Part shown: in pieces, positions 8,416 to 45,494 of the stretch | Layout: each line of letters starts with the position of its first letter | Numbering within the stretch: position 1 is the stretch's first letter | Assembly (NCBI GenBank): GCA_003133545.1 | Contig: PKYA01000062.1 | Location: forward strand, 7,135-71,134 | Length of the DNA: 64,000 nucleotides | Reading direction: 5' to 3' | DNA from: Acidimicrobiaceae bacterium | GTDB lineage: Bacteria > Actinomycetota > Acidimicrobiia > Acidimicrobiales > RAAP-2 | Translations under genes and position numbers: made by a program | The notes under the pieces: generated by a model | Told to the model about the DNA's origin: nothing | The model's database searches: none | What the model saw: only the letters and a program-made list of their open reading frames with translations

Positions 8416-9103
8416 CCTCGGCCGGACCGATGGTCAAGGTGTACGGGACCTCGTCGTATTGGACGATGGTCTCCTTGAGCGTGGCCCCGCAGGCCCCATC
8501 GGCATCGGGCAGCACCACGGTGACCGGCGATGGCCCCTCGTCGGTCTGCGTCCCGGCCGGGCACGTCACGGTCAAAGAGAGGATGCTGGAGGACGTCCAG
8601 CTGGCGCTCACCTCCATGGACCCCTGGCCGCTGAAGGAGTAGTTGGCCGTCGCGTCGTCGGGTTGCTGGAGATAGCCCGGGTACGACTCGGTGGGCACGA
8701 CCGGTTGCACCGGTGCGGCAGCGACGTTCGAACCCCGCGCCGGGGAGGCTGCGACCGTGCTGGTCGTCGTGGTGACGACGGGGCCGCTGCTCACCCGCGC
8801 GTCGGTGACCGGTGCGGACGTCGGAGCCGGACCGGCGACCGGCGACGTCGCCGGTGTCTGCGAAGAGCGCACGGTGGTCGAAGTGGTGGTCGTCGTGCTC
8901 GATGCCGGTCCCGCTCGTGATGGGCCCAGGGCTGCATGCGTCCGCGGTCCCGGTTGCTCGCCCAGCGGGTGCGGACGGCCCGCAGCGACGGCAGCCACCA
9001 CTGCGAGGAGTGACAGTGACACGGCCAGGACGACCCACCAATGGGGGCGACTGCGCGCTGGCCGAGAGCCGTCATATTCCCGCCTGGTCGCAACCCCTCC
9101 CAC
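8408..9103 (-). CDS. membrane-anchored protein with Ser/Thr/Pro-rich linker and small Cys-containing C-terminal domain (unknown function)
   Basis: TM WWVVLAVSLSLLAVVAAVAA, a TTTTTSTT/TSPVAGPAPTSAP linker, then YPGYLQQPDDATANYSFSGQGSMEVSASW...LTVTCPAG...DADGACGATL. GC3-rich. Lies between and is coupled to the flanking genes. Confidence 0.55.
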   Translation of the reverse strand: MGGVATRREYDGSRPARSRPHWWVVLAVSLSLLAVVAAVAAGRPHPLGEQPGPRTHAALGPSRAGPASSTTTTTSTTVRSSQTPATSPVAGPAPTSAPVTDARVSSGPVVTTTTSTVAASPARGSNVAAAPVQPVVPTESYPGYLQQPDDATANYSFSGQGSMEVSASWTSSSILSLTVTCPAGTQTDEGPSPVTVVLPDADGACGATLKETIVQYDEVPYTLTIGPAEGG

Positions 9104-9146
9104 GGCGTGACCTTACGCGCCATGCGACATGCGGGAAATCGCGACG

Positions 9147-9938
9147 TCACACGCAGAGGCGTCGGTGACCCCGGTCGCGCCGCGCGTAGAGGGAGCGGCG
9201 GTCCCGGCCCGTCAACGACGCCAACTCGGCTATGGAGAAGCCCAGCACATGGTGGGCGTAGAGGACCTGGACCTCTTCTGGCCGCATGCCGTCGCGGCGC
9301 AGGTCGATCAGCGTACGCGCCAGCACCTCGAGGTCGGTCTCGCTCGCCACGGCGCGCGGCTCGGCGCTGTCCGGCGTGAACGGCATCTGCAGTTGCCGGA
9401 GATCCTTGGCCCGGAACAGCTGCCGGCGCATGCGGCAACGGATCGCCGACAGGAGGTCGAGCACGGCATAGGGCCGGTCCTGGCCCGACCATTCGGTCAC
9501 CACCATCCACGTGGTGGAGAGGGTCTCGCTGAAGAACTCACTCCCATCCTCCCACTCACCTCCTTGACCCCACCGCAGGCGCGCCGCGATGGTGAGCAGA
9601 CCGGGGAGCAGGGCCTGCACGAGGCAGCGGACGACCAGCGGGTCCACGGCGGCCTCGCGGAGCATCACCCGGACGAGCCCTGCCGCATCCTCTCGGCCCC
9701 GACTCCCGGTCGCCTGCCGCATGTGGTCGATCAGGGCACACGGCGTCGGGCACCGGGGTGGCGCGCCCGGCGCGCCCCCGGGGGTGTCGGGCGCGCCATG
9801 CACCAACATTGCGAGGTGCGGGTCGCGCTGGGCCAGGCGGTGCAGGGCGCGCACCGCCCCTTCTGAGCGGCCGAGCGTGCGCCACTCCGTGTTCAGCTGT
9901 TCGATGGGCAGGAGCCCGTGTCGCATGGCGGGAGGCAT
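9147..9938 (-). CDS. divergent sigma-70-like / HTH protein (region 4-like C-terminus)
   Basis: EEVQVLYAHHVLGFSIAELASLTGRDRRSLYARRDRG resembles a sigma region 4 HTH. LVRVMLREAAVDPLVVRCLVQALLPGLLTIAARL is region-2-like. Only the last 264 codons (ATG at 9936-9938) of the 560-aa track ORF are used. The family call is weak. Confidence 0.5.
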   Translation of the reverse strand: MPPAMRHGLLPIEQLNTEWRTLGRSEGAVRALHRLAQRDPHLAMLVHGAPDTPGGAPGAPPRCPTPCALIDHMRQATGSRGREDAAGLVRVMLREAAVDPLVVRCLVQALLPGLLTIAARLRWGQGGEWEDGSEFFSETLSTTWMVVTEWSGQDRPYAVLDLLSAIRCRMRRQLFRAKDLRQLQMPFTPDSAEPRAVASETDLEVLARTLIDLRRDGMRPEEVQVLYAHHVLGFSIAELASLTGRDRRSLYARRDRGHRRLCV

Positions 9939-10049
9939 GGCCAGCACCCTCTCGGGTCTCGCTCCCCCCATGCCTCCCCCAACGGGCCTCCGGCGGCAGG
10001 GCGCGGGCGCAATCCTGTGGGCGCCCTGGTGGGGGATAACCTCCCGCTG

Positions 10050-10463
10050 ATGGATATCGAAGAGTTCTACGACGGCGACCCCAGGCGCCGTCCTTCGGCG
10101 GAGACCGAGCTGGGCACCGAATGGCATGACGCGCACGGCACCCGGTACGAACTCAGCTGGCTGGAGGACACCGGAGAGCTCTACGTCATGCGGGAGCCGG
10201 CCCCGCACATCAGAGGAGACCCCTTTGGTGGGCTGCACTTTTCGATGCGGGCCGCCGAAGAGGGAAAGATGACCGTGCACGTGGTGGCCCACATCCCATC
10301 CCTCCCCGACGTGCACCGGATCCTCGACGGCTGGCAAGCCGCCATGGCGGGTGACGGCGGAGCCGAGTGGCTGGCCGAGCGGCTGCGCACGGCGGGGGTG
10401 GCCACCGGGCCCGAGGAACCGATTCCCGACGATGCGGGCGACGCCGACCCGCTGGGCGCCTGA
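10050..10463 (+). CDS. hypothetical protein (138 aa)
   Basis: ATG at 10050 (MDIEEFYDGDPRRRPSAETELGTEWHDAHGTRYELSWLEDTGELYVMRE...). Protein-like composition and GC3 bias. No motif recognised. Confidence 0.5.
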   Translation: MDIEEFYDGDPRRRPSAETELGTEWHDAHGTRYELSWLEDTGELYVMREPAPHIRGDPFGGLHFSMRAAEEGKMTVHVVAHIPSLPDVHRILDGWQAAMAGDGGAEWLAERLRTAGVATGPEEPIPDDAGDADPLGA

Positions 10464-10479
10464 CGATCCGAGCGAAACC

Positions 10480-11580
10480 TCAGCCTGGTGCGGGGAGGTC
10501 CAGCATTTTGGCCAGTAGCTGCGTGGCCAGATTGTTGGTCGCCATGTCGGAGTCGCCCGGCAGTGTGTCACTGCCCACCAACAGGTCGGCCAACCGGGCC
10601 ATGACCACGGCGAAGCGGAACCCCGCGAAGACCTCGTAGAAGAACAGGTCGCGCAAGGGCCGGCCGAGGACCTCGGCATAGTGGTCGATCGTCTCTTCGT
10701 GCGAGCCGAAACCCGCCGGCCGCGGCACCCCGAGCCCGTCAGAGAACTGAAGGTCGAAATAGAGCCACCACCCGAGGTCCATCTCGGGTTGGCCGAGTCC
10801 GGCCATCTCCCAGTCCAACACGGCGGCACACTCGAAGTCGTCCCAGATGATGTTGCCGATGCGGCTGTCGCCCCAGCTCAGCGTCACCTCGCCCACCTCC
10901 TCGGGCTGATGGGCCACCAGCCACGCCCATGTTGCGTCCAGCGTCGCGATCGGCGTGCCTTTGGCGACCCAGTGGTAGAAGTCCCGGTAGTACGCCATGT
11001 GCTGCTCAATGCCGGGTCGACCGCGACGGGGGTCGCTGAGCCAGCCGAGCCCGAGCGCGGTCCAGTCGACGCGATGCACGGCCGCGAGCGCATCGATGCC
11101 ACTCCACCACATCCGGGCCTGTTGCTCGGGCGTCCCTTCAATCACCCACCCCTCCAAGGTGTAGGGCAGGTTGTCGGCCGGCACCTGCCCTTCTACATGG
11201 TCCATGGTGAAGAACGGCACGCCAAGGTACCGCGGGTCCTCCTCGTACCACCCCAGCTGGGGGAGGGGGATGCCGGTCTCGCCCTCGGCCAGGGTCCGCA
11301 TGACGCTGTACTGCGAGGAGAAGTCGGCGTCGAGGAAGAGGAGATGCTTGGTGGGCGCCACGCGCACGACCAGTCGCTTCTCGGTGGGGCCGTCCCCGGA
11401 GTCGGCGCGGACACGGCACATGATGGTCTCGTTGGAGAAGCCGTTCGTCTCCGGCGACTGCACGTCGAAGACCTCGATCCGGGTGCCGCGGCCGGCCCCG
11501 CCCTGTTCCGCCTTCTCCGCCAGCCACTGGGAGAGTATGGAGGCAACCTCACTCGGGTCTCGATGATCGATATCGGGCAT
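10480..11580 (-). CDS. phosphotransferase family protein (APH / choline-kinase fold)
   Basis: Start MPDIDHRDPSEV at 11578-11580. SNETIMCRV, FFTMDHVEG, catalytic loop LSWGDSRIGNIIW, and VLDWEMAG. Confidence 0.8.
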   Translation of the reverse strand: MPDIDHRDPSEVASILSQWLAEKAEQGGAGRGTRIEVFDVQSPETNGFSNETIMCRVRADSGDGPTEKRLVVRVAPTKHLLFLDADFSSQYSVMRTLAEGETGIPLPQLGWYEEDPRYLGVPFFTMDHVEGQVPADNLPYTLEGWVIEGTPEQQARMWWSGIDALAAVHRVDWTALGLGWLSDPRRGRPGIEQHMAYYRDFYHWVAKGTPIATLDATWAWLVAHQPEEVGEVTLSWGDSRIGNIIWDDFECAAVLDWEMAGLGQPEMDLGWWLYFDLQFSDGLGVPRPAGFGSHEETIDHYAEVLGRPLRDLFFYEVFAGFRFAVVMARLADLLVGSDTLPGDSDMATNNLATQLLAKMLDLPAPG

Positions 11581-11701
11581 GGGGCGGGAGTGTAGCCAGG
11601 GCCCCGCTGTCGTCGGGGCCTCGCCGTTGGCTACCCTGTGGGCTGATCGCGCGCGCGTCCTGGGACGGCCGCGGCGACGCTCACGAAAAAGGGGAGGGCA
11701 C

Positions 11702-18828: not shown

Positions 18829-18902
18829 GGGCGCTTAGCTCAGTTGGTTAGAGCAGCTGGCTTACAACCAGCAGGTCGGGGGTTCGAGTCCCTCAGCGCC
18901 CA
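18829..18902 (+). tRNA. tRNA-Val (anticodon TAC)
   Basis: The cloverleaf can be drawn by hand. Acceptor GGGCGCT/AGCGCCC, D-stem GCTC/GAGC, anticodon stem GCTGG/CCAGC with loop CTTACAA, T-arm GGGGG-TTCGAGT-CCCTC, discriminator A. CCA is not encoded. Confidence 0.9.
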
Positions 18903-18944
18903 CAAATTTCGCTTGCGCGAACCGCTTGGTGGCCAGCCGGCGGC

Positions 18945-19358
18945 TTAGACCGCGACGACATCGACGAGCCCTCGGAGACTTCGAAAGTCGTCCGGATTGC
19001 GCGAATAGAGCGGGAGTCCTGCAGCACAGGCTGTTGCCGCGATCAAGAGATCCACCGCTCGAGCGCCACGTGCCTTGCGTCCGCTCGCGACTTCGGCAGC
19101 GTAGATCCGCCCATAGGCGCGAGCCGCCTCTCCATCGAAGGGAAGGGGATCGAACGCTGCTTCTGCCCGTTGTAGTCTGTCCTGCCGGCGCGCCCGCTCG
19201 TTGGCGTCAGCGGTCGCGTGCGATCCGGCGGCAAGTTCTGCCATGGTGATCGCGCTGACGGCTAGCTCAAAGGGAAGCTGGTCGACCTCGAGCTGTTCGA
19301 GGTCGATGACCACCGAGGTGTCGATGACACCCCGGTGAGCGCGTGGAGAATTAGGCAC
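18945..19358 (-). CDS. vapC: type II toxin VapC (PIN-domain ribonuclease)
   Basis: VIDTSVVIDL (first acidic residue), ITMAEL, DLLIAATA, LYSRNPDDF. GTG start at 19356-19358 overlaps the antitoxin stop by 8 nt. Confidence 0.85.
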   Translation of the reverse strand: MPNSPRAHRGVIDTSVVIDLEQLEVDQLPFELAVSAITMAELAAGSHATADANERARRQDRLQRAEAAFDPLPFDGEAARAYGRIYAAEVASGRKARGARAVDLLIAATACAAGLPLYSRNPDDFRSLRGLVDVVAV

Positions 19359-19611
19359 GAGGGCTGGGGTCCTGGGATGCGACGCTGTCAAGGTCGTTGC
19401 GGAGCTGGTCCAAGTCGACACTCGGAGCGCCCCGGAACATGGCGATGGCATTGTCGGCATTCACGAAGCGGTGGCGCCGAAGCGGGGTCAACTCCCCGAC
19501 GGGTACTCCATGTCGGGTGACGACGAAGGTCTCACCGCGGTCCAATCCCCTCATGATCTCGCCGCTGTCGTTCCTGAGTTGACGTTGGGTGATGTCTCGT
19601 GCCATGAGCAT
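19351..19611 (-). CDS. Phd/YefM-type antitoxin
   Basis: ITQRQLRNDSGEIMRGLDRGETFVVTRHGVPVGEL is the typical Phd/YefM N-terminal fold sequence. 86 aa, immediately upstream of and overlapping vapC. Confidence 0.8.
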   Translation of the reverse strand: MLMARDITQRQLRNDSGEIMRGLDRGETFVVTRHGVPVGELTPLRRHRFVNADNAIAMFRGAPSVDLDQLRNDLDSVASQDPSPRA

Positions 19612-20940: not shown

Positions 20941-23900
20941 TTGAGCACCGAGAGCGCGACGATCCTGTTCACCGACGTGGTGGGCTCAACGGAGCTCTCG
21001 CAACGTCTGTCGGCCGAGGCCGCCGACGAGGTTCGCCGGGGGCACTTCTCGATTCTGCGCCAGGCCCTGGCCGAGGCCGGTGGCACCGAGGTCAAGAACC
21101 TCGGCGACGGCCTCATGGTGGTCTTCAGCTCGGCCTCCTCGGCTATCGGTTGTGCCGTGGCCATGCAGCAAGGGGTCGAGCGGGACAACCGGGACCGGGA
21201 GCACTCGGTGGGACTGCGAGTAGGGCTGAGCGGGGGCGAGGTAAGCAGAGAGAACGACGACTACTTCGGCGACCCGGTAGTCGAAGCGGCCCGGCTCTGT
21301 GCCACCTGCGAGAGCGGGCAAGTCCTGGCCACCGATGTTGTGCGGGCCATGGCTGGTCGGCGCAGTCGTTACGAATGCCTCTCGCTCGGAGAACTGACCC
21401 TGAAGGGACTGTCCGACCCGGTCGAAACCGTCGAGGTGGTCTGGGAGCCCCTCGGAGGGGCCGACACCGACCCCGGGACAGTCATCCCTTTGCCAGGTCG
21501 TCTGGCAGTACGCCCCATGGTGGGTGTTGTTGGACGCGAAGCCGAGATGCAAACCATGACCGACGCCACCAAGCGCGTCGCCGCGGGCGAAGGGCGCGAG
21601 GTGTTGCTCATTTCGGGCGAGGCCGGTCTGGGAAAGACGACGCTCGTGGCCGAAGCGGCAAGGGCTGCGTTCGAGGCTGGGGCCTGTGTGCTGTTCGGCC
21701 ACTGCGAAGAGGACCTCGCCACCCCCTACCAGCTCTTCGCCGAGGCCCTCCGCCACTACGTCACCCACGCCCCGGAAGGTCAACTCCGCAGCCACGTCGA
21801 GGAGTACGGATCGGAACTGTCCCGACTTGTGCCAGCCTTAGCCAGCAGAATTCCGGGCCTTCCGCCGTCGAAGGCCACCGATTCCGATACCGAGCGGTTC
21901 TTGCTCTTTGCCGCCGTGGTCGGTCTTTTGGCCAAGGTGTCGGAACACCAGCCAGTCGTCCTCGTCCTCGACGACCTCCAGTGGGCTGACAAAGGAAGCC
22001 TGCTGCTCCTTCGCCACCTCACGGCGGCCGAGCAAGCCATGCGCGTACTCACACTCGGTACCTACCGCGACAGTGAGTTATCGCGCTCCCACCCGCTCCT
22101 CGACACCCTGGCGGCGCTGCATCGACAGAATGACGTCAGTCGCATCGAACTGGCAGGGCTCGACGACATCGGCGTAATGGCGTTGATGGAGGCCGCCGCC
22201 GGTCATACCCTCGATGACGCCGGAGTGGGTCTCGCCCACGCTGTCTATCACGAGACCGACGGCAACCCGTTCTTCGTGAGCGAAGTGCTGCGCCACCTGT
22301 CGGAGACCGGGGCTATCTACCAGGACGCCACTGGACGGTGGACCTCTGAGAACACCGTGGAACAGGTGGCCCTACCCGACAGCGTGCGCGTCGTGATTGG
22401 TGCCCGGGTCGGACGACTGGGACAAGACGCCGAGCGTGTGCTGTCGCTGGCGGCGGTCATCGGTCGGGACTTCGACCTCGATGTTCTGGCTCGGGCCACG
22501 AAGTCCTCGGAAGACGAGCTGCTCGACATCCTTGAAGCAGCCACCACTGCCTCCCTGGTGCGGGAGTTGGCCGACGCCCCTGGGCATTACAACTTCGCCC
22601 ACGCCCTCATCCAGCACACCTTGTACGAGGACTTGGGTCTTACCCGTCGAGCCCGGGCACATCGGCAAGTAGCCGAAGCCCTGGAAGACCTGTGCGGCGA
22701 CCGCCCCGGGAGCCGGGTGGGCGAACTGGCCCGCCACTGGTTCAGCGCCACCCAACCCATCGATCTGGCCAAGGCCATCGGTTACTCGCGCCAGGCGGGC
22801 GACGCCGCTCTCGATGCCCTCGCCCCTGCCGACGCCCTTCGTTACTACGCCCAGGCCCTCGACCTCTGCCCCCAGGCCACCGACCCTGATCCCGTCCTCG
22901 GCATCGACCTGGCCATCGGCCTCGGCACGGCCCAGCGCCAGGCCGGGGACCCTGCATTTCGCGAAACCCTTCTTCACGCAGCGCATCGGGCGGCCAATCT
23001 CGGCGACACCGAGCGTTTGGTGGCGGCGGCCCTGGCCAATAACCGGGGCTGGGCCAGCGCCATCGGCACCATCGACGCAGACAAGGTCGAGATCCTGGAG
23101 ATCGCCCTTGGTCGGCTGTCTACCGACGACCTGGATCGGGCTCTCGTCCTCGCCACGCTGTGCTCCGAGCTTGCTCACGGCAGCCCACTCGACCGACGTC
23201 AGGCTCTTGCAGATGAGGCCGTAGCCATCGCACAGGCCAATGGCGACGACGCCGTCATTGTGCGGGTGCTCAATCATGTCTCGCTCCCGCTCCAGGTGCC
23301 ATCCCTCCTCGAACAGTCGCTGGACAGGTCGGCCGACGCTCTGGTTCGAGCCGAACGGGTCGGTGATCCGGTGCTGCTTGACTATGCAGCTATTTGGCGT
23401 GCCATCACTGCTTGTCGCGCGGCGGACATCGAAGAACTGGACCGCTGCGTCGAGATAGCCAGGGGGCTCGTCGAGCAGCTCGACCAGCCCCACTTGACCT
23501 GGGGGAACACTTTCATGCGCGCCCAACGAGCCATAATCGCCGGGGACACTGATCGGGCCGAACAGTTGGCCACGGAGGCCCTCCAGATCGGCACCGACAC
23601 CGGTGAGCCCGATGCCGCAATCTTTTTCGGTGCCCAGTTGGTGGGCGTGAACCACCAACGCGGGACCGCCTACGAGATGGTTCCTATCATCGAGCAGATG
23701 ATCGCCGAGACTCCCGATCTTGGCCCGGGAGCACTCAACGGGGCCCTGGCCTTGGCCTATACGGATGGGGGCAGAGTTGATGACGCGCGTCACCTGCTCG
23801 AGGAGTTCGCAGCCGCAGAATTCGATCTCCCGTTGGACCAGATCTGGATCCCCGCAATGGTCAATTACGCCGATGCTGCCGTTGAATGTCGGGACCTGAC

Positions 23901-24261
23901 GTACGCCATGCCGATGTTCGACAAACTCGCTCCGTGGGCTGATCAGTTGTCCTGTACCGGTTCAACGGCCGAAGGACCGGTCAGCCACTACCTCGGCGGC
24001 CTCGCCACCGTCCTCGGCCGCTACGAAGAAGCGGATGCCTACTTTGCACAATCCGCCGCGTTCAGCGCGCGGGTGGGTGCAAAGTTCTTCGCCGCCCGCA
24101 CAGACTTCTTATGGGGCAGGATGCTGGCGGAGCGCCGTGCCCCCGGGGACATCGAGAAGGCTCGGGACTTACTCACCAAGGCGCACACCACTGCAGTGAC
24201 CAACGGCTACGGGACCGTGGAACGGCGCGCTGCGGCGGCACTCCAACTGTTGGACGCCTAG
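20941..24261 (+). CDS. class III adenylate/guanylate cyclase domain fused to AAA_16/STAND ATPase and TPR-like C-terminal repeats
   Basis: ILFTDVVGSTELS, KNLGDGLMVVF, GLSGGEV, FGDPVVEAARL (cyclase homology domain). Walker A ISGEAGLGKTTL and Walker B VVLVLDDLQWAD. A long helical-repeat C-terminus with no LuxR HTH at the end. TTG start preceded by GGGAGGG. Confidence 0.85.
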   Translation: MSTESATILFTDVVGSTELSQRLSAEAADEVRRGHFSILRQALAEAGGTEVKNLGDGLMVVFSSASSAIGCAVAMQQGVERDNRDREHSVGLRVGLSGGEVSRENDDYFGDPVVEAARLCATCESGQVLATDVVRAMAGRRSRYECLSLGELTLKGLSDPVETVEVVWEPLGGADTDPGTVIPLPGRLAVRPMVGVVGREAEMQTMTDATKRVAAGEGREVLLISGEAGLGKTTLVAEAARAAFEAGACVLFGHCEEDLATPYQLFAEALRHYVTHAPEGQLRSHVEEYGSELSRLVPALASRIPGLPPSKATDSDTERFLLFAAVVGLLAKVSEHQPVVLVLDDLQWADKGSLLLLRHLTAAEQAMRVLTLGTYRDSELSRSHPLLDTLAALHRQNDVSRIELAGLDDIGVMALMEAAAGHTLDDAGVGLAHAVYHETDGNPFFVSEVLRHLSETGAIYQDATGRWTSENTVEQVALPDSVRVVIGARVGRLGQDAERVLSLAAVIGRDFDLDVLARATKSSEDELLDILEAATTASLVRELADAPGHYNFAHALIQHTLYEDLGLTRRARAHRQVAEALEDLCGDRPGSRVGELARHWFSATQPIDLAKAIGYSRQAGDAALDALAPADALRYYAQALDLCPQATDPDPVLGIDLAIGLGTAQRQAGDPAFRETLLHAAHRAANLGDTERLVAAALANNRGWASAIGTIDADKVEILEIALGRLSTDDLDRALVLATLCSELAHGSPLDRRQALADEAVAIAQANGDDAVIVRVLNHVSLPLQVPSLLEQSLDRSADALVRAERVGDPVLLDYAAIWRAITACRAADIEELDRCVEIARGLVEQLDQPHLTWGNTFMRAQRAIIAGDTDRAEQLATEALQIGTDTGEPDAAIFFGAQLVGVNHQRGTAYEMVPIIEQMIAETPDLGPGALNGALALAYTDGGRVDDARHLLEEFAAAEFDLPLDQIWIPAMVNYADAAVECRDLTYAMPMFDKLAPWADQLSCTGSTAEGPVSHYLGGLATVLGRYEEADAYFAQSAAFSARVGAKFFAARTDFLWGRMLAERRAPGDIEKARDLLTKAHTTAVTNGYGTVERRAAAALQLLDA

Positions 24262-37784: not shown

Positions 37785-37895
37785 ATGCGCCAAGCGTCTG
37801 TGTCCATCAAGAAAGGAGAGATCACCTATCGAGAGGGCCTGACGCATCATGCAATCGTTGAACTTGGGAATTTTGGCGCATGTCGACGCCGGTAA
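37785..37895 (+). promoter_or_regulatory. candidate leader uORF (36 codons, MRQASVSIKKGEITYREGLTHHAIVELGNFGACRRR) overlapping the start of the ribosomal-protection gene
   Basis: AGGAG (37774-37778) lies 6 nt before ATG 37785, a better SD than that of the main ORF. The uORF is in the +1 frame and ends at TAA 37893-37895, 47 nt inside the main ORF. It also contains an internal SD-like AAAGGAGAG. Function is inferred only. Confidence 0.3.
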
Positions 37896-39843
37896 GACCA
37901 GCCTGACCGAGCGGCTTCTTTATGCCGCCGGGGTAATCGACCAAATCGGAAGCGTCGACAAAGGTACGACCCAAACCGACTCCCTCGCCTTAGAACGGCA
38001 ACGAGGGATCACCATCAAATCGGCCGTGGTTTCGTTCGTCGTGAACGCCACCGCGGTGAACCTCATCGACACGCCCGGTCACCCAGACTTCATCGCGGAG
38101 GTCGAGCGCGTGTTGAATGTGCTCGACGGCGCAGTCTTGGTGCTATCAGCCGTGGAGGGAGTGCAGGCTCAGGCCCGCGTCCTCATGCGGGCCCTGAAGC
38201 GGCTCAATATCCCCACCCTGCTGTACATAAACAAGATCGATCGCCGCGGCGCGGACGTGCAGAAAGTACTACGCGCCATCTCGGAGAGGCTGACGCCCGA
38301 CATTGCCCCAATGGGTTGTGTCCATGACCTGGGAACCCGCCACGCGGCGTTCGATCCCTACGGTCCGGCCGATCCCGCCTTCTTGGCGAGCTTGGCCGAG
38401 CAGCTCACCCAACACGACGAATCGCTTCTTGCCGACTTCGTTGAAGGTGAAGCGGAGATCTCGTATCGCCGGTTGCGTGCTGCGTTGACCGTCCAGGTGC
38501 AGCACGCGCTGGTTCACCCTGTGTATTGCGGATCAGCCATCACCGGCGCAGGTATCGAGTCCCTCATGTCCGCCATCACCGAGTTGCTGCCGACCGCCAA
38601 CGTCGATGGCGGGCCCGCAAGCGGGGCGGTGTTCAAGATTGAGCGGAGCCCATCTGGGGAGAAGATCGCATTCATTCGAATGTTCTCAGGAGAACTGCGG
38701 ACTCGCAATCGGATCCCGTTCGGACATGATGGCGAGGGAAAAGTGACCGCTGTCAAGGTCTTTCGTCGCGGTTCGGCTGTCCAATCATCCTCCCTCACCG
38801 CCGGGCAGATCGGGAAGGTGTGGGGGCTCTCCGCGATCCAGGTTGGAGATTCCATCGGCTCAGCTCGGCCTCACTTGGCCAGTCGACAGTTCGCACCGCC
38901 CACCCTTGAGACGGCGATCGTTCCATGTATCTCCGACGAAAAGGGCGCCTTGCATGCCGCACTCGCCCATTTAGCAGAGCAGGATCCACTCATCGGTTTG
39001 CGCCAGGATGATCTCCGCCAGGAGTTATACGTTTCGCTGTACGGCGAGGTGCAGAAGGAAATAGTCCGGGACACCCTGCTGGCTGACTTTGGGATTGAGG
39101 TGGAGTTCCGCGAGACGGTCCCCATTTGCATCGAACGCCCCATCGGCGTCGGCTCGGCGGTCGAGGTGCTCGGCCAAGCCGGCAATCCTTTCCTGGCAAC
39201 GGTCGGGTTGCGGGTTGAACCGGCACCTATGCGGTCGGGCATTGAGGTGGTGCTGGATCTCAAGCTCGAATCGATGCCCCGTAACGTGTACAAATCCGTC
39301 GAAGAGTTCCACCGGGCGATGACGGACACAGTGCGCACGACGTTGCGTGAGGGGATCCACGGATGGCAGGTCACGGACTGCCTGGTCACGATGACCGACT
39401 GCGGATACACGTCGCCCGGGACAACCGCAGGTGACTTCTCCAAGTTGACGCCGCTGGTACTCATGGCAGCCCTCAAACAGTCCGGCACGAAGGTGTGCGA
39501 GCCGATCAATCACGTACATGTGGAGCTCCCGGCGGGAACTCGTTCGAAGGTGTCGGCCCTGCTCTCGCGTCTCGGCGTGACGACCGGCGAAACAGAAATG
39601 GGCGACGGCACCGTCACGCTGGAAGGGCAGATCCCCGTATCTCGAACGCACGATCTGCAGCAGCGATTGCCGGTCCTCTCGAGGGGCGAAGGGGTCTTGG
39701 AAGCTTTCTTTGCTGGTTATGAGCCCGTTCGTGGTACTGCACCGGCCCGTCCCCGGACCGATGGCAATCCCTTGAACCGCAAGGAATACCTGCTCCGGCT
39801 CAGCGGCGGGCGGCCGACAACAGGCGGGGTCCACGAGCGATGA
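37849..39843 (+). CDS. ribosomal protection-type tetracycline resistance GTPase (Tet(M)/Tet(O)/OtrA family, EF-G-like)
   Basis: MQSLNLGILAHVDAGKTSLTERLLYAAGVIDQIGSVDKGTTQTDSLALERQRGITIKSAV...LIDTPGHPDFIAEVERVL...INKIDR closely follows the Tet(M) N-terminus. 664 aa with EF-G-like domains II-V. Confidence 0.85.
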   Translation: MQSLNLGILAHVDAGKTSLTERLLYAAGVIDQIGSVDKGTTQTDSLALERQRGITIKSAVVSFVVNATAVNLIDTPGHPDFIAEVERVLNVLDGAVLVLSAVEGVQAQARVLMRALKRLNIPTLLYINKIDRRGADVQKVLRAISERLTPDIAPMGCVHDLGTRHAAFDPYGPADPAFLASLAEQLTQHDESLLADFVEGEAEISYRRLRAALTVQVQHALVHPVYCGSAITGAGIESLMSAITELLPTANVDGGPASGAVFKIERSPSGEKIAFIRMFSGELRTRNRIPFGHDGEGKVTAVKVFRRGSAVQSSSLTAGQIGKVWGLSAIQVGDSIGSARPHLASRQFAPPTLETAIVPCISDEKGALHAALAHLAEQDPLIGLRQDDLRQELYVSLYGEVQKEIVRDTLLADFGIEVEFRETVPICIERPIGVGSAVEVLGQAGNPFLATVGLRVEPAPMRSGIEVVLDLKLESMPRNVYKSVEEFHRAMTDTVRTTLREGIHGWQVTDCLVTMTDCGYTSPGTTAGDFSKLTPLVLMAALKQSGTKVCEPINHVHVELPAGTRSKVSALLSRLGVTTGETEMGDGTVTLEGQIPVSRTHDLQQRLPVLSRGEGVLEAFFAGYEPVRGTAPARPRTDGNPLNRKEYLLRLSGGRPTTGGVHER

Positions 39844-41075
39844 GAGGGACCCCCGGAAGACATGCTGGACGCGAACCGGTAGACCGATCCATCTCCTCGA
39901 CCTTCCTGCGGTGGACTTTCGCACGGGCGCTGTTTCACCGGGGCTACGTATTGGCCTCGGGCCTCTACTTCGTCATCAACGCCCACCTGTCGGGATACCA
40001 GCTCCTGATTCTGGCCACCGTCATGGCAATCACACTGCTGCTGTCGGACATTCCCTTCGGCGTGTGGTCCGATGCGTTCAGCCGCAAGTGGCCACTGGTC
40101 ATCGGCCACGTGTTCCTCGCCGCGGGGATGGTGTTGACCGGCCTCGTCACCGCGTTCCCGCTCCTGCTCGTGACGCAGGTCCTGTGGGGCTTGGGTTGGG
40201 CGTTTTCGACCGGAGCGGATGTGGCGTGGGTGACCGACGAGTTGGACCAGCCCGGGCTCATCGCTCGCGTACTCACGGCCCGGGCGCGTTGGGACCTGAT
40301 CGGTGGAGCGGTAGGCATGACCGCGTTCGGAGTCCTTGGCTGGGCCATCGGCCTGGGAACGGCAATCGTCATCACCGGGGCTGCGATGGCCGTGGTCGGG
40401 GTCTTCGTAGCTCTTCGGTTTCGCGAGGACAATTTCACCCCCGCGAAAGCGCAGAAATGGAAGACCTCGGTGTCGATTTTCCGACGAGGGCTGAGTCTTT
40501 CGCGCCGAGACCGTGAGGTGTTGCTTGTTCTCGTTGCCACAATGCTTGTCAACGGGGCGGCCATGATCTCGTGGGCATTCCCCAAGCAGCTCGTCGATCG
40601 CGGTTTTCCAAGTAGTCCCGTGCTGTGGTACGCCGCCCTTGGAATCCTTTCGTCCGGCATCGGGATTCTTGCCTTGCATTTCGTGGAGGTTCGTATTGAG
40701 GGAGTTGGTGTGGCGCGCCGGACCTATGCGCTCAGCTGTTTCGTCGGGATGTTGGGGCTATTGGTACTGGCTTACGCTCCGAAGGCACTCGAGGGCAGCG
40801 CCGGCATCCTTGTCATAAGCGGCATCACCTTCAACGTCACTCGTACTGTCAGCACCGTTTGGATCAATCGACGGACACCGAGTGACATTCGAGCCACGAT
40901 GCACTCGTTTCTCTCGCAGGCCGAATCGGTGGGAGAGGTCGCCGGCGGAGCCGCTCTTGCCGGTGTGGCCAGCCTGTGGGGGATCGTTCCGACGATCGTG
41001 GCCTCGGGCCTGCTGGTGGCTCTTGCGGGTGTCATCGTCGCAAGGTCCCGTGCTGATCGCAAGGTCCCGTGCTGA
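39840..41075 (+). CDS. MFS transporter, translationally coupled to the ribosomal-protection gene
   Basis: ATGA start/stop overlap at 39840-39843. About 12 hydrophobic segments. Motif-A-like GVWSDAFSRKWPLVIG. Confidence 0.8.
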   Translation: MRGTPGRHAGREPVDRSISSTFLRWTFARALFHRGYVLASGLYFVINAHLSGYQLLILATVMAITLLLSDIPFGVWSDAFSRKWPLVIGHVFLAAGMVLTGLVTAFPLLLVTQVLWGLGWAFSTGADVAWVTDELDQPGLIARVLTARARWDLIGGAVGMTAFGVLGWAIGLGTAIVITGAAMAVVGVFVALRFREDNFTPAKAQKWKTSVSIFRRGLSLSRRDREVLLVLVATMLVNGAAMISWAFPKQLVDRGFPSSPVLWYAALGILSSGIGILALHFVEVRIEGVGVARRTYALSCFVGMLGLLVLAYAPKALEGSAGILVISGITFNVTRTVSTVWINRRTPSDIRATMHSFLSQAESVGEVAGGAALAGVASLWGIVPTIVASGLLVALAGVIVARSRADRKVPC

Positions 41076-41077
41076 TC
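41040..41077. repeat. perfect 19-bp tandem duplication GCAAGGTCCCGTGCTGATC x2 spanning the MFS stop codon
   Basis: Read directly. The second copy is read in a shifted frame, so the protein ends ...ARSRADRKVPC*. With a single copy it would end ...ARSRADHE*. Confidence 0.9.
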
Positions 41078-41507
41078 ATGAATAGGACGTCATCTGCGCC
41101 GATCAAACGAAGCCGAAGACCTTGCGTCGTCCCCGAGACCAGAAAGAGATGAGTTCGCTGGACGCTGCTCGAACAACCGCCAAGGTTCGTCCATCTTGGG
41201 CGTGGGCACGCGGCATCCATGCGGGCAAGTGCAGGTTGGCGCGTCGCAGGTGCAACGCCGGTTTGCCGTCTCCAAGGCGACCGACCAACGCCGCTTGCCC
41301 TGACGGGCGAAGTGTTCCCCAGGGCTGCCGAGGTCGGCTGGGGCACCGAAGGCCCCGTGGCCTGGACCCTCACCGATGGCTGGGCTTGGGTGCGTCACGA
41401 CGAGGCAATCGCTCCGCCTTCTTGAGCCGCTCGGCTCACCCACTAGACGTCTTGGCAGTCCAGGTCTAGTCTTGCCTGGGGTTAGTGGCTTCATAGGCGG
41501 GTGGACG

Positions 41508-43232
41508 GTGGCGGAAATCACACAAGAGGGCGCGCGGCCGCGAGGCGTTTTCATCAGCTACCGGCGCGGTGAGACGAACGGTCAGGCTCGGGCCCTCCAC
41601 GACCAGCTAGCTGGTCACTTTGGCAAGAATCGTGTCTTCATGGACGTAGATTCGATCAGCCCCGGAGCGGACTTCGTCGAAAAGATCAATGAGGCCATCG
41701 ACTCGAGTGGTGTGGTGCTCGTCCTGATCGGACGGGACTGGATCGGAAGCGGCGGTCGCACGCTGAATGATCCGAATGATTTCGTGCGCCTGGAGATCGA
41801 CGCCGCGCTACAGCAGCACGTCCAGATCATTCCCATCCTCGTTGAACGCACACCGATGCCCGACCGAGCAGAGCTTCCCGAGCCCCTTCGCCCTTTGGCC
41901 AATCGGCACGCCCTCGACCTTGAGAATGCGCGTTGGGACTCTGACGTGCAGCGCCTGGTAACCGCTGTGGAGCCGTATGTGGACAGCGAGGCTTCTGTGA
42001 CGGTCCCAGGGGTCGAGCCTCGGACTCCCAAGCAAAGTGAAGGAGTCGCCGGTGAAAAGGCTCGCGGCGTCTCCTTTTCGGGCCGCAACCTCGCCGTGGG
42101 GATAACCGTATTGGTCGTGGTGGTCGCTTTGGTCGTGTACTTCATCACCCGCCCGGGACCCAAGCCGAAGCCGCCCGCACAGCTATCTGTGGCGCACACC
42201 GTTGCCGCGATTGTTCCGGATCGTATGGCAGAGGCATTACTGGGCGCGGAATTCACCGGCCACGCTCTCCCGAGCGGCGTATCGGCTTCCGGCCCTCCGC
42301 TTCTGGGCACCTACCGATTCCAGAATGCGGTTGCGGAAATCGAAGTCCAGCTCTCGGGGTTGGCCCCGAGCATCGGCATCAACTACCTAGTCTTTGACGC
42401 TCCCGGTGCTGCCAAGGCCTATGTGGCGGACACCGACCCAGTGGGTGGCGGCTTTCGAACGACGGGTACATTCGCCTCCCCCGGAATCGGCAACTCGCTG
42501 AAATGCGGTACGTCATATAGAGCGGCCAGCTCAACGAACACTCAGCTCTGGTCCTCTGACTGCCTGACAGCGAGTGCCAACGTGGTCGACTTCGTGTACG
42601 TCGGTACTTCCTCCAAGAAAACGACCGCTGACGACGCGCTCGTGGCGAAACTGACCGAAGATGCCCTCCGTCACGTGGGGAGCGTGGCGGCAACGGCACC
42701 CAAGGCGCCGCTGGTGCCTCCTCCGGGGTCGCTCAATCCTGACGCACAATTCGCGCAGATCCGCAACGCCACCTTCAACACGGCGTTCGAGCCCGATGGG
42801 CTGACGAACCCGGTGGTTGCGTCCTTCAGCGCGGGAACGGACCCGCCAACCGGCCTGATCAACGGCTCGTACATCACCGCCACCTTCACGGGACCGGACC
42901 ACGAAGACGTCCTCTATTTCTACATTTTCGATACTGCGCAAGACGCAGGGACCTGGTTCAACACCACGCCGGTACTGCACGGCGCGACGACGACGAGCGT
43001 GCCGCTGGATTGTTCTGGCTTTTCCCAGCAGGCCCAGTGTGCAAATTATTCGTTGCCCGCAAGCGGTACGGTGCCGGTCCTCGGACTTTCCCAATGTCAG
43101 GTCCTGTGGGGCAACGTCGTGATCTTCGGCGACTCCGAAAGCACGACGAACACCCAAGCGGGTACGGGCGACATTGCCGTTACATTGGCCCGCTCCGGTG
43201 TCATGTATCTGGACCAGCTGGGCGGTTCGTAG
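41508..43232 (+). CDS. TIR domain protein with one TM helix and a duplicated extracytoplasmic C-terminal module
   Basis: GVFISYRRGETNGQARALHDQLAGHFGKNRVFMDVDSISPGADFVEKINEAIDSSGVVLVLIGRDW...DFVRLEIDAAL...IIPILVE (TIR_2-like). TM LAVGITVLVVVVALVVYFIT. Two related ~170-aa modules follow. GTG 41508 is preferred over ATG 41376 because the first 44 aa look non-coding. Confidence 0.8.
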   Translation: MAEITQEGARPRGVFISYRRGETNGQARALHDQLAGHFGKNRVFMDVDSISPGADFVEKINEAIDSSGVVLVLIGRDWIGSGGRTLNDPNDFVRLEIDAALQQHVQIIPILVERTPMPDRAELPEPLRPLANRHALDLENARWDSDVQRLVTAVEPYVDSEASVTVPGVEPRTPKQSEGVAGEKARGVSFSGRNLAVGITVLVVVVALVVYFITRPGPKPKPPAQLSVAHTVAAIVPDRMAEALLGAEFTGHALPSGVSASGPPLLGTYRFQNAVAEIEVQLSGLAPSIGINYLVFDAPGAAKAYVADTDPVGGGFRTTGTFASPGIGNSLKCGTSYRAASSTNTQLWSSDCLTASANVVDFVYVGTSSKKTTADDALVAKLTEDALRHVGSVAATAPKAPLVPPPGSLNPDAQFAQIRNATFNTAFEPDGLTNPVVASFSAGTDPPTGLINGSYITATFTGPDHEDVLYFYIFDTAQDAGTWFNTTPVLHGATTTSVPLDCSGFSQQAQCANYSLPASGTVPVLGLSQCQVLWGNVVIFGDSESTTNTQAGTGDIAVTLARSGVMYLDQLGGS

Positions 43233-43383: not shown

Positions 43384-44661
43384 ATGAGCGACTTGCCCCA
43401 GCGTGCCGCCTCGATAGTACGCCGCGGCAAGGGCGTCAATCCGCATGTGCCCAAGGGTTGGCGATTGGTGCTCGTCATCGGGGGCTTGTCGATCTTCGGA
43501 CCCCTGAGCATCGACATGTACCTCCCGTCCCTGCCCCGAATAAGCCGCGATCTCCATGCCAGCACTTCAGCGGTGCAGCTCACGATCACCGCGTGTTTGA
43601 TCGGCATCGCGGTCGGACAGCTGGTCATCGGACCGGTCAGCGATCGTCATGGGCGACGAGGCCCCCTCTTGGCCGGGATATGTGCCTTCGTGCTCTCGTC
43701 GCTGGCGTGCACCATCGTGCAGAATGTCTACGTTCTCGATGCGCTGCGTTTCATGCAGGGGCTCGGTGGCGCGGCGGGGATCGTCATCTCCCGCGCGATC
43801 GTCCGGGATCTCTTCGAAGGGGTGAAAGCGGCACGCTTCTTTTCGACCCTGATGCTGGCCACCGGTGTGGGGCCAATTCTGGCGCCGCAGTTTGGCGCCG
43901 AGATCCTCCGGGTCACGTCGTGGCGCGGCATCTTCGTGGCCCTGGCGATCATCGCCTCGGCGCTCTTCGTCAGCGCCCTGTTCAACGTCCCCGAGACCCT
44001 TCCGCCGGATCGCCGTAACGCGGGCGGTATGCGCTCGACGATCCGGACGCTCTGGATCGTGGGTCGGGATCGCTCGTTCATAAGCTACGCGCTCGTTCTC
44101 ACGCTTGGCTTCGGTGCGGTATTCGCCTACATCGCGGGATCACCGTTCGTGCTCCAAGATGTGTACGGGCTCTCGCCCCAGGTGTTCGGTTTCGTGTTCG
44201 CCATCAACGCGGTCGGGCTTGTCCTCGGGGCCCAGATCAACGGCCACCTGCTCCACCGCTTCGGCAGCGGCCCGTTGCTCAGTGTGGGCTTGATCCTCAT
44301 GGGAGTGGGGGGTTTGGTGTTCCTCGCCGACGTGGCAACCCGATGGATCGGGCTCCCCCTCATATTGCCTTCGTTGTTCACCACCATGTTCGGCCTGGGG
44401 TTCGTCGGACCCAACAGCATGGCGCTGGCCCTGCAGAACCATCCCAACGCAGCCGGAGCCGCATCAGCCCTGCTCGGGAGCGCGCAGTTCCTGTTCGCCG
44501 CTGCGGTGGCACCGATCGTCGGTGTCGCCGGAAGTCATACCGCGTTGCCCATGGCACTGGTCATGGCCGCGCTCGCTTCTGTTGCCGTGATCGTCCGTTT
44601 CACGTTTCCACGGGGCGCACCCGCGGTGCCGATCCCGGTGGACGCGGCGCCCGTCCTCTAG
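43384..44661 (+). CDS. MFS drug efflux transporter, Bcr/CflA (DHA1) subfamily
   Basis: GGLSIFGPLSIDMYLPSLPRISRDL, GQLVIGPVSDRHGRRGPLLAG (motif A), 12 TM pattern. Confidence 0.85.
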   Translation: MSDLPQRAASIVRRGKGVNPHVPKGWRLVLVIGGLSIFGPLSIDMYLPSLPRISRDLHASTSAVQLTITACLIGIAVGQLVIGPVSDRHGRRGPLLAGICAFVLSSLACTIVQNVYVLDALRFMQGLGGAAGIVISRAIVRDLFEGVKAARFFSTLMLATGVGPILAPQFGAEILRVTSWRGIFVALAIIASALFVSALFNVPETLPPDRRNAGGMRSTIRTLWIVGRDRSFISYALVLTLGFGAVFAYIAGSPFVLQDVYGLSPQVFGFVFAINAVGLVLGAQINGHLLHRFGSGPLLSVGLILMGVGGLVFLADVATRWIGLPLILPSLFTTMFGLGFVGPNSMALALQNHPNAAGAASALLGSAQFLFAAAVAPIVGVAGSHTALPMALVMAALASVAVIVRFTFPRGAPAVPIPVDAAPVL

Positions 44662-44672
44662 GCCCCCAATCC

Positions 44673-45494
44673 TCACACCTCGAGCTCGTCCAGATCGCGC
44701 GCGACGACGACACCCCCCCTGAAATGGGCGCGGGCCTCGTCTGCCCACTCGTCCTCTGTCCCGGGCCACGGCGCCGGCACCAGGTGGGTGAGCACGAGAG
44801 TCGAGACCCCGGCACGCGCCGCCGTTCCGGCGGCATCTTCGACGCTCGAGTGGTACCCGATGATGTCCTGCAGGCGAGGAGACGGAATCGCCTCCACGAG
44901 CGATTTGCGGATCACGGTCTGCACGTACACGTCCGCTCCCGCCGCCAGCCTGTCCAGGCCGGCGCACGGGACCGTATCCCCCGCGATCACGACCGCGCGA
45001 CCCTCGGCCTCCACCCGGTAGCCGACCGTGGGGTGGACGGGGGCATGATCCGTGGGCTCGGCCATGATCCGCACGGTCCCGTCGTCGAACACGACGCCCT
45101 CGGAGACCTCGGCCACGTCGCAGGTGGGGCGCCAGTTGAGGTCGTCGTGATGGGCCAAGCGGTAGCCGATGTCGTCGTCGAGCATCGTGAGCGTCCGCTC
45201 GACCATGCGGCCCGTCCCCACCGGCCCGACGACACGCAGCGGCTGATCAGTCGGCGACATGGCCCACCGCATCGTCACCACGTCGTTGAAATCGGTGATG
45301 TGATCGCTGTGCAGGTGGGTCAGCAGGACCGTGTGCAAGGTCAGGGGTCCGGTGCCTGCAGCGGCGCAGCGCATGAGCACGCCCCGCCCGCAGTCGAAGA
45401 GGAAGTCGCCGCTGGGCGTGCGCACCAGGTTCGCGGGTCCGGCGCGATTGGGATCGGGGAGTGGGCTTCCCGTCCCCAACGTGATGAGCTTCAT
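44673..45494 (-). CDS. MBL-fold metallo-hydrolase (RNase Z/BN-like)
   Basis: MKLITLGTGSPLPDPNRAG, LLTHLHSDHITDF (HxHxDH), VLTHL. Confidence 0.85.
   Translation of the reverse strand: MKLITLGTGSPLPDPNRAGPANLVRTPSGDFLFDCGRGVLMRCAAAGTGPLTLHTVLLTHLHSDHITDFNDVVTMRWAMSPTDQPLRVVGPVGTGRMVERTLTMLDDDIGYRLAHHDDLNWRPTCDVAEVSEGVVFDDGTVRIMAEPTDHAPVHPTVGYRVEAEGRAVVIAGDTVPCAGLDRLAAGADVYVQTVIRKSLVEAIPSPRLQDIIGYHSSVEDAAGTAARAGVSTLVLTHLVPAPWPGTEDEWADEARAHFRGGVVVARDLDELEV

Follow-up and report, generated by a model that had tools for sequence, protein, structure and literature searches.

A Predicted Type-II Membrane Protein Joining a SARM1-Like TIR Domain to a Duplicated Ectodomain in an Acidimicrobiaceae Bacterium

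Results and Discussion

The TIR Gene and Its Start

The gene described here lies on the forward strand of a 64,000-nucleotide stretch of DNA (the window; positions 7,135 to 71,134 of contig PKYA01000062.1, assembly GCA_003133545.1) from an Acidimicrobiaceae bacterium, and all positions given below are those of the window. It encodes a protein of 574 amino acids (aa) in which an N-terminal TIR domain is followed by one hydrophobic helix and by two related modules. The initial annotation, made from the letters alone, had described it as a membrane-anchored TIR protein with a duplicated ectodomain of no recognised family. The core of that reading, namely a TIR domain with a putative catalytic glutamate, a predicted N-in/C-out orientation and a duplicated ectodomain, is supported by the sequence comparisons reported here. 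The gene and its parts are as follows.

41376-43232, + strand: maximal open reading frame (ORF), confirmed in the window by the ORF listing
41076-41507, + strand: upstream intergenic gap of 432 bp with a Shine-Dalgarno-like motif, read directly from the sequence
41508-43232, + strand: coding sequence of the protein with TIR domain, transmembrane helix and two ectodomain modules, 574 aa, GTG start, stop codon included (P0001 match; gene calls L001-L006)
41547-41960, + strand: predicted cytoplasmic TIR_2 domain, SARM1-like, aa 14-151 (Pfam PF13676; SARM1 sequence matches)
41793-41795, + strand: codon of Glu96, the predicted catalytic glutamate (codon checked; conservation and SARM1 alignment)
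42090-42146, + strand: single transmembrane helix, aa 195-213, LAVGITVLVVVVALVVYFI (Kyte-Doolittle scan)
42168-42728, + strand: ectodomain module 1, aa 221-407, including a Pro/Lys-rich juxtamembrane stretch; Cys333 (42504-42506) and Cys352 (42561-42563)
42729-43229, + strand: ectodomain module 2, aa 408-574, with an SGFSQ motif; Cys511 (43038-43040) and Cys530 (43095-43097)

The GTG codon at 41508, proposed initially as the probable start within this ORF, is the start chosen by the gene callers in six other assemblies (L001-L006), and the product recorded as P0001 in the protein collection begins at the same codon and matches with 100% identity and coverage over 574 aa. A Shine-Dalgarno-like GGTGGA motif is found at 41500-41505, 3-8 nt 5′ of the GTG. 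The stretch of about 430 bp of apparently non-coding DNA reported ahead of the gene measures 432 bp; no genes are called in it in the six other assemblies, and scans of 41076-41507 with Rfam and for sigma-70-type promoters gave no matches. Gene and gap are 100% identical at the nucleotide level across L001-L006, which come from different sequencing runs, so that the gene, with its reading frame intact, is nucleotide-identical in seven assemblies.

The TIR Domain

The N-terminal part of the protein matches TIR_2 (PF13676) at aa 14-151 with E=1e-16 and 62 bits against a 28-bit cut-off, over the full length of the profile (positions 1-122), and the TIR_2 assignment made initially is thereby borne out. 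About 40 full-length homologues were found at 29-66% identity, and family conservation was read from an alignment of 39 full-length homologues in this range. Glu96, within DFVRLE, and F56 are invariant, and FISYRR together with most of DFVRLE (D91, E96) is kept in at least 90% of the 39 sequences.

The closest sequences of solved structure are the TIR chains of human SARM1 (E ~2e-4). Both the HMMER and the MAFFT alignment pair Glu96 with SARM1 E642 (DWVHKE), in agreement with the earlier claim that the Glu of VRLEID stands at the catalytic position. Furthermore, Y18-R19-R20 correspond to Y568-R569-R570 (FISYRR in both proteins), F56 to F603 and F92 to W638, the SARM1 residue numbers being counted from the printed sequence. 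These SARM1 positions are reported to be NAD-pocket and catalytic sites (Horsefield 2019). The roles of SARM1-type TIR residues were also taken from PMC7075850. Collectively, these correspondences suggest that the SARM1-like TIR is apparently catalytically competent, and from them we infer that it may cleave NAD+.

Transmembrane Helix and Topology

In the Kyte-Doolittle scan aa 195-213 reach a 19-residue mean of 3.05, the sole such segment in the protein, as expected from the single hydrophobic helix noted initially. In the family the 15 residues flanking the helix contain on average 5.1 lysines and arginines on the TIR side vs 1.5 on the ectodomain side, and this positive-inside bias toward the TIR side is present in 37 of the 39 members. 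Cysteines are distributed in the opposite sense, with a mean of 0.3 in the N-terminal part and 4.1 in the C-terminal part, and their number in the C-terminal part is even in 35/39. One transmembrane helix also directly precedes the module in the kinase, CHAT, AAA and TIR fusions described below. In Hanks kinases, whose kinase domain is necessarily cytoplasmic, this module likewise comes after a transmembrane helix, and the TIR domain is accordingly placed inside and the modules outside. Charge bias, cysteine distribution and Hanks-kinase fusions all point to the topology of the initial annotation, and the protein is best described as a predicted single-pass protein of type-II orientation, with an N-in TIR domain and C-out modules.

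Duplication, Cysteines and Fold of the Ectodomain

For the profile-profile comparison with hhalign, the alignment of 39 sequences was split into its two module halves. The halves match over 158 columns with a probability of 99.7% and E=9e-27, and on account of this E value the two ~170-aa modules, proposed as related in the initial annotation, are regarded as a real and old internal duplication. The paired cysteines ascribed to each module are confirmed as one pair per module, invariant in the 39 homologues (C333/C352 and C511/C530); the fifth cysteine, C502, is not conserved. The ectodomain modules are conserved as strongly as the TIR domain, with SGFSQ-type motifs.

Scans with Pfam, NCBIfam and PADLOC found zero models matching aa 214-574, and neither PknH_C nor any other ectodomain family was detected by Pfam in the window protein or in 87 relatives of the module. 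AlphaFold2, run on the family alignments, modelled both modules with a predicted local distance difference test score (pLDDT) of 90.2 and a predicted template-modelling score (pTM) of 0.89, and module 2 alone with a pLDDT of 92.4. In the model each module consists of a helix, three strands, a second helix, three to four strands and a long C-terminal helix. In each modelled pair the two cysteines occupy adjacent antiparallel strands and are exactly in register across them (113+132 = 118+127 and 291+310 = 296+305 in model numbering), which fits a disulfide.

In Foldseek searches against the PDB, the single-domain matches of high probability (1.0) are TiME/Rv3705c (7cu9 and 7cu8, TMq ~0.50) and, likewise at probability 1.0, the PknH extracellular sensor domain (4esq, TMq 0.48); for 4esq and 7cu9 the E values are 2e-3 to 7e-3 and the TM-scores 0.43-0.50. 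Weaker matches are TM1622, BT_1490, MTC28 and LpqN, and against viral models nothing rose above noise. The top long alignments of the two-module model (DynU16, TplEi, RseB) had TM <0.2 and were discarded as spurious. A PknH/TiME-sensor-like fold is therefore a borderline prediction for the modules. The earlier statement that the ectodomain can be assigned to no family stands as far as sequence models are concerned, of which there are none; it gives way to the predicted PknH/TiME-like fold and to the finding that receptor kinases, as well as CHAT, caspase and STAND proteins, carry the module as their outside part.

The Ectodomain Module in Other Proteins

A profile search with the module in 1.84 billion representative proteins returned 184 relatives. 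In P0122, P0129, P0157, P0161 and P0190 a Hanks-type Pkinase domain precedes the transmembrane helix and the module; the same arrangement is found with CHAT in P0135 and with an AAA/ATPase_2 domain in P0137. Further fusions involve nSTAND1, caspase, trypsin, S8 and FHA domains, and short secreted or lipoprotein-like forms with a single module also occur. Its position behind a transmembrane helix in Hanks kinases as well as in CHAT, caspase, STAND and AAA proteins lets the module be read as a swappable outside sensor; judged by these architectures, it is apparently a rare, exchangeable domain that proteins of signalling and death type carry outside the cytoplasm. A ligand of the module, if found, would also be informative for those Hanks kinases that have the module as an orphan sensor domain.

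Relatives and RyR-Linked Gene Clusters

The genome-placed full-length homologues all belong to metagenome-assembled genomes (MAGs) of Acidimicrobiales/Acidimicrobiaceae from bog, peat and soil. Loci of relatives were retrieved with the full-length alignment, which returned mostly TIR-only relatives. All sampled homologues at 40-47% identity (L007-L017) share a conserved cluster in the order of a divergent trio, the gene for the TIR protein with helix and ectodomain, a gene for a ~155-aa RyR-domain protein (PF02026) and a gene for a ~770-aa TIR_2-TrkA_N-RyR protein. The domains of the last are assigned by Pfam, its TIR also retains the Glu, and its architecture is rare (~17 clusters).

L007:8925-11684; L008:8797-11585; L010:8815-11792: pairing of the TIR gene with an RyR-domain (PF02026) gene
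L014:10058-12995; L017:11807-14542; L092:7657-9558: the same pairing in further loci
L007:2714-6337; L010:2925-6552; also L011, L012, L014, L016 and L017: trio of S8 peptidase, zinc-ribbon and small transmembrane protein genes

The trio, present with the cluster in most of the Acidimicrobiales relatives, comprises an S8 peptidase of ~525 aa, a multi-transmembrane double-zinc-ribbon protein of ~410 aa and a small transmembrane protein of 227-265 aa.

Phage RyR (Repeat12) proteins cleave or sequester 2′cADPR, 3′cADPR and cADPR (cADPR, cyclic ADP-ribose), and the key residues of the phage protein RyDEP are H75, W78, H100 and D117 (PMC13232231; 10.64898/2026.06.04.730250). When RyDEP (gp78 of MN234187) was aligned with ten RyR domains of the clusters, H75, W78 and D117 proved invariant in these ten, and H100 was kept in two aligned TIR-TrkA_N-RyR copies. 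Searches of the accessible literature turned up no account of RyR genes on chromosomes in partnership with TIR genes, and the RyR and TrkA_N-RyR partner genes are not covered by any PADLOC model.

Pairing with RyR genes extends beyond L007-L017. At L092, the locus of member P0029 (35% identity), a TrkA_N-RyR gene and a CHASE2-TIR membrane protein are found, and RyR genes are present too at L048, which is from Solirubrobacterales and encodes another TIR protein. The CHASE2-TIR gene (L092:9807-11498), next to the TrkA_N-RyR gene, encodes a second membrane TIR protein in which a CHASE2 extracytoplasmic sensor is fused to TIR_2. The window copy lacks the adjacent RyR and TrkA_N-RyR genes that define an RyR-linked TIR cluster, and partners are likewise absent around P0002 (the closest relative, 66% identical), P0025 and P0042. 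The initial proposal of a one-component system is therefore in keeping with the window copy and these three orphan members, but not with most divergent relatives, which have RyR and TIR-TrkA_N-RyR neighbours and, in many cases, S8-peptidase and zinc-ribbon genes as well. The distant member P0044 lies at L094 (1762-5931, 9259-10263) amid genes for a ClpB-like AAA+ ATPase, TY-Chap1 and ARPP-1 and a second, weak TIR gene, a neighbourhood that is conflict-system-like and unlike the RyR cluster.

Hundreds of proteins from many phyla are related to the TIR domain alone, at 45-65% identity. A crude hydropathy scan places one hydrophobic segment just after the TIR in 53/75 of them, and the regions that follow TIR and helix vary (tachylectin, PD40, DUF11). 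Neighbour clustering of 72 TIR-only loci found no family in more than 9 loci and thus no general partner of proteins with this TIR-helix layout; a SLATT_1/DUF4231 gene and a TPR-S gene are the recurrent neighbours. They occur in alphaproteobacterial MAGs at L058, L059, L068, L074, L078, L087 and L088 (~6500-11600 in each), where a TIR 45-48% identical to that of the window protein is encoded beside SLATT_1/DUF4231 two-transmembrane and TPR-S genes. Thoeris types VII and VIII, with the effectors ThsH and ThsI, use canonical cADPR (10.64898/2025.12.03.692087), and by analogy the alphaproteobacterial loci resemble a combined type VII/VIII Thoeris system. Because they are closely related to one another, they are counted as one or two independent cases. 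Membership of the window copy in Thoeris was considered and rejected, as no effector is adjacent and its ThsB and ThcB scores fall far below the cut-offs.

Proposed Mechanism and Alternatives

The reading toward which the evidence leans, if only somewhat, is that of a membrane receptor with a SARM1-like TIR domain inside and a tandem, disulfide-braced PknH/TiME-like sensor outside, in which a ligand would drive NAD+ cleavage. A putative ligand from the envelope or the environment would bind the ectodomain and change the oligomeric state of the receptor, clustering receptors and bringing the cytoplasmic TIR domains together, as TIR NADases require. The assembled TIR domains would then cleave NAD+, leading either to NAD+ depletion or to a nucleotide of the ADP-ribose (ADPR)/cADPR type. 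In most relatives a cADPR-type product may be read or quenched by the co-encoded RyR-domain proteins, with the RyR domain of the second TIR protein as the putative sensor of the product and the small RyR protein as its quencher. Because no RyR partner is encoded within the 64 kb, the window copy would act alone, as a stand-alone NAD+-consuming effector, or through a reader encoded elsewhere. The biological role may lie in defence, against phages or attack on the envelope, or in sensing of the envelope or the population, and any immune role is putative.

Several observations weigh against the receptor reading. A conserved Glu is no proof of NADase activity, being frequent in non-enzymatic TIR domains of Toll-like receptors too (PMC7075850). 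In the window copy itself the lysines and arginines flanking the helix are tied at 3 vs 3. Foldseek gave zero ectodomain matches in the PDB at E<=1e-3, which, with TM ~0.5, leaves the fold call borderline, and the ectodomain profile found zero matches among all PDB sequences even at E<=10. The PADLOC ThsB1 match is partial and sub-threshold (aa 54-117 only, E=5e-8), and the NCBIfam ThcB4 match is partial as well, with 43 bits vs a 220-bit cut-off. The gene stands outside a defence island, among resistance, efflux and RNase Z-like genes, and when the 64 kb were searched by tblastn with the RyR, TrkA_N-RyR, S8 and zinc-ribbon partner proteins, no match reached E<=1e-3.

Part of this evidence could also be explained by a non-immune envelope or population sensor, responding to a cell-wall, nutrient or neighbour cue in the manner proposed for PknH-type receptor kinases, whose TIR domain in this case makes an NAD-derived messenger that regulates growth or development and does not kill. 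Hanks Ser/Thr kinases use the same ectodomain module, the genes around the window copy are of housekeeping or resistance type and not of defence, its relatives adjoin genes for secreted S8 peptidases and membrane zinc-ribbon proteins in place of classical defence genes, and the partner genes are without a PADLOC model. However, the module is also fused to domains of death or conflict type (CHAT, caspase, nSTAND1 and TIR itself), one relative sits amid conflict-type genes (TY-Chap1, AAA+, ARPP-1), and characterised bacterial TIR enzymes are not known to act other than in immunity or as toxins. We regard such a sensor as somewhat unlikely, while giving it real weight. It is distinctly less probable that the ectodomain is a mere anchor or localisation device, for example for binding to the cell wall, and that the TIR responds to a phage protein in the cytoplasm, like Thoeris ThsB or SpbK. 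All bacterial TIR sensors investigated to date do detect cytoplasmic cues (PMC11350192; 10.64898/2025.12.03.692087), and ~70% of the closest TIR relatives have a transmembrane segment with very diverse C-termini, which are possibly tethers. Yet modules as conserved as the TIR domain, with invariant Cys pairs and SGFSQ-type motifs, are hardly expected of an anchor; they serve as the outside domain of receptor kinases, a position usually read as sensing, and a conserved tandem domain of 350 aa would be costly for a tether.

Two further alternatives concern the TIR domain and the gene as a whole. That the TIR serves as a scaffold without catalysis, recruiting other proteins in the manner of animal Toll-like receptor signalling, would be compatible with the presence of the conserved Glu in some non-enzymatic TIR groups (PMC7075850). 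It is made highly improbable by the retention of the Glu together with the SARM1 NAD-pocket positions (F92/W638, Y18-R19-R20, F56/F603), by the link of relatives to RyR domains that keep cADPR-binding residues, and by the absence of an adaptor-like TIR partner encoded nearby in the window. That the window gene is a decaying orphan, left after the loss of RyR-type partner genes, is scarcely credible: the partners are indeed missing from the 64-kb window and from the P0002 locus, but the frame is full-length with every family-invariant residue present, the gene is nucleotide-identical in seven assemblies from different samples, and orphan copies recur in other lineages.

Beyond the receptor reading of the single protein, the family might form a bacterial counterpart, under receptor control, of the SARM1/cADPR/ryanodine-receptor axis of animals. 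A PknH-like sensor outside would switch on the TIR across the membrane, the TIR would make a cADPR-type nucleotide, the RyR (Repeat12) domain of a TIR-TrkA_N-RyR effector would read it, and a small RyR protein with the glycosidase dyad would quench it; the window gene would stand alone within what would be the first bacterial TIR receptors, for immunity or signalling, to sense events outside the cytoplasm. As a whole, this wider proposal is rather unlikely.

Comparison with Known Systems

The TIR domain shares with that of SARM1, an animal NAD+ hydrolase/cyclase, the FISYRR box 1, the BB-loop Phe, the catalytic Glu (Glu96/E642) and an aromatic residue that precedes it. It differs in that identity is ~25-30% over ~135 residues, the window protein is without ARM or SAM domains, and its TIR is N-terminal and presumably held at the membrane by the helix that follows. 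With Thoeris ThsB and other signal-generating TIR proteins (types I-XI) it has in common a TIR with a catalytic-position Glu and the weak partial ThsB1/ThcB4 matches, and with Thoeris VII/VIII the SLATT and TPR-S effector-like genes, which stand beside related TIR genes and not beside the window gene. Unlike the soluble cytoplasmic ThsB sensors, the window protein is a predicted transmembrane protein with a large ectodomain and has no adjacent effector.

The layout of the receptor Ser/Thr kinase PknH of Mycobacterium tuberculosis (4esq) is similar in having a cytoplasmic output, one transmembrane helix and a disulfide-containing alpha/beta sensor. In contrast to PknH and TiME, however, the window ectodomain has no detectable sequence similarity to them (no PknH_C, no PDB profile match), its module is tandem-duplicated with one conserved, predicted disulfide each, and its output is a TIR domain, not a kinase. 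Toll-like and IL-1 receptors are also single-pass proteins with a recognition domain outside and a TIR inside, and in this logic the Toll-like-receptor layout suggested initially is retained. The domain order is reversed, however: the window TIR is N-terminal, the predicted protein is of type II without a signal peptide, and neither leucine-rich repeats (LRR, zero Pfam matches in the window protein) nor Ig domains are present. The window TIR is moreover enzymatic-looking, SARM1-like and not adaptor-recruiting. The resemblance to Toll-like receptors is thus to be taken as an analogy and not as membership.

In a survey of E. coli TIR systems, phage resistance was obtained with TIR systems, among them one with a transmembrane domain (Nat Commun 2024, PMC11350192). 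That system is similar as a bacterial TIR with a transmembrane segment and different in that no ectodomain or sensing role is reported for it (PMC11350192). According to the survey, membrane features of the Toll-like-receptor kind seem absent from bacterial TIR systems (PMC11350192). The phage RyDEP and RyR Tad proteins are comparable to the cluster RyR domains, in which H75, W78 and D117 are kept; they are phage anti-defence factors, in contrast to the chromosomal RyR genes co-encoded with TIR genes in the relatives.

The domain combination is rare and previously uncharacterised, while the TIR enzymes themselves are of a known kind. A TIR domain wired through one helix to an ectodomain of the receptor-kinase type would extend NAD-based signalling to outside-in sensing, and a receptor-controlled axis, if true, would give bacteria a functional counterpart to Toll-like receptors. 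Both 2026 RyR preprints raise a possible link to ryanodine receptors (PMC13232231; 10.64898/2026.06.04.730250). Chromosomal RyR genes beside TIR genes would offer an experimental handle on the question of cADPR isomers and ryanodine receptors.

Genomic Neighbourhood in the Window

The neighbours of the TIR gene and the tRNA gene discussed here are the following.

37849-39843: Otr(A)/Tet-type ribosomal-protection GTPase, upstream (687 bits, just below the 775-bit equivalog cut-off)
39840-41075: tetracycline-type efflux pump of the major facilitator superfamily (MFS), upstream, overlapping the Otr(A)-like gene
43384-44661: Bcr/CflA MFS pump, downstream
44673-45494, - strand: RNase Z-like metallo-β-lactamase-fold (MBL) gene, downstream (NCBIfam RNase Z, 337 bits vs a 363-bit cut-off)
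18829-18903: tRNA-Val(TAC), 22.6 kb from the TIR gene

Beyond the MBL gene lie an acyltransferase gene and then Ku. No known TIR partner is found among the Otr(A)-like GTPase, the two MFS pumps, the RNase Z-like gene, the acyltransferase and Ku, and no ThsA, SIR2, SLOG or SLATT gene adjoins the TIR gene in the window, so that the lack of an adjacent ThsA/SIR2/SLOG partner reported initially is confirmed. For the MBL gene the Pfam scan gave Lactamase_B and Lactamase_B_2 only, and NCBIfam added a weaker match to a cyclic-nucleotide phosphodiesterase model. A precomputed 'Anti-Pycsar Apyc1' label on this gene was not reproduced by the Pfam scan. Taking into account that this label was not reproduced and that the nearest NCBIfam model is RNase Z, the gene is not treated as a TIR partner and is probably unrelated to the TIR gene.

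The placement of the gene in a variable, tRNA-proximal region, as initially described, is not supported. With tRNA-Val 22.6 kb away, 'tRNA-proximal' is a stretch; no integrase is present among the ORFs scanned near the tRNA gene, its 3′ end occurs once in the window without an att-like repeat, and no flanking direct repeats bounding the segment were found. These results give no support to a tRNA-bounded genomic island. The sole hint left is compositional: the G+C content at third codon positions (GC3) is 0.72 in the TIR gene, 0.73-0.74 in the two upstream genes and 0.81-0.88 in the downstream genes, and the low-GC3 block ends just 3′ of the TIR gene. This shift is at most a hint of foreign origin.

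A block of lower G+C (~0.59-0.63 vs 0.67-0.73) extends from ~19 kb to ~43.3 kb. Directly after tRNA-Val(TAC), in the region 18829-19460, a gene for a PIN-domain (VapC-like) protein is found on the - strand. The overlapping pair at 37849-41075 may confer tetracycline resistance, or self-resistance, on this uncultured actinobacterium. At the extreme 3′ end of its MFS gene (41038-41075) a 19-bp perfect tandem duplication (TCGCAAGGTCCCGTGCTGA, x2) spans the stop codon and is kept in all six other assemblies; because its length is not divisible by 3, it alters the C-terminal frame of the MFS gene. PADLOC scans of the window neighbours and of the partner genes of the relatives gave no matches except weak ones at 20941-24261 (+ strand). 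The gene there encodes a protein of 1106 aa that combines a nucleotide cyclase domain with a STAND-like ATPase (AAA_16) and tetratricopeptide (TPR) repeats, and it is the cyclase domain that weakly matches the PADLOC models of Pycsar (PycC-like) cyclases.

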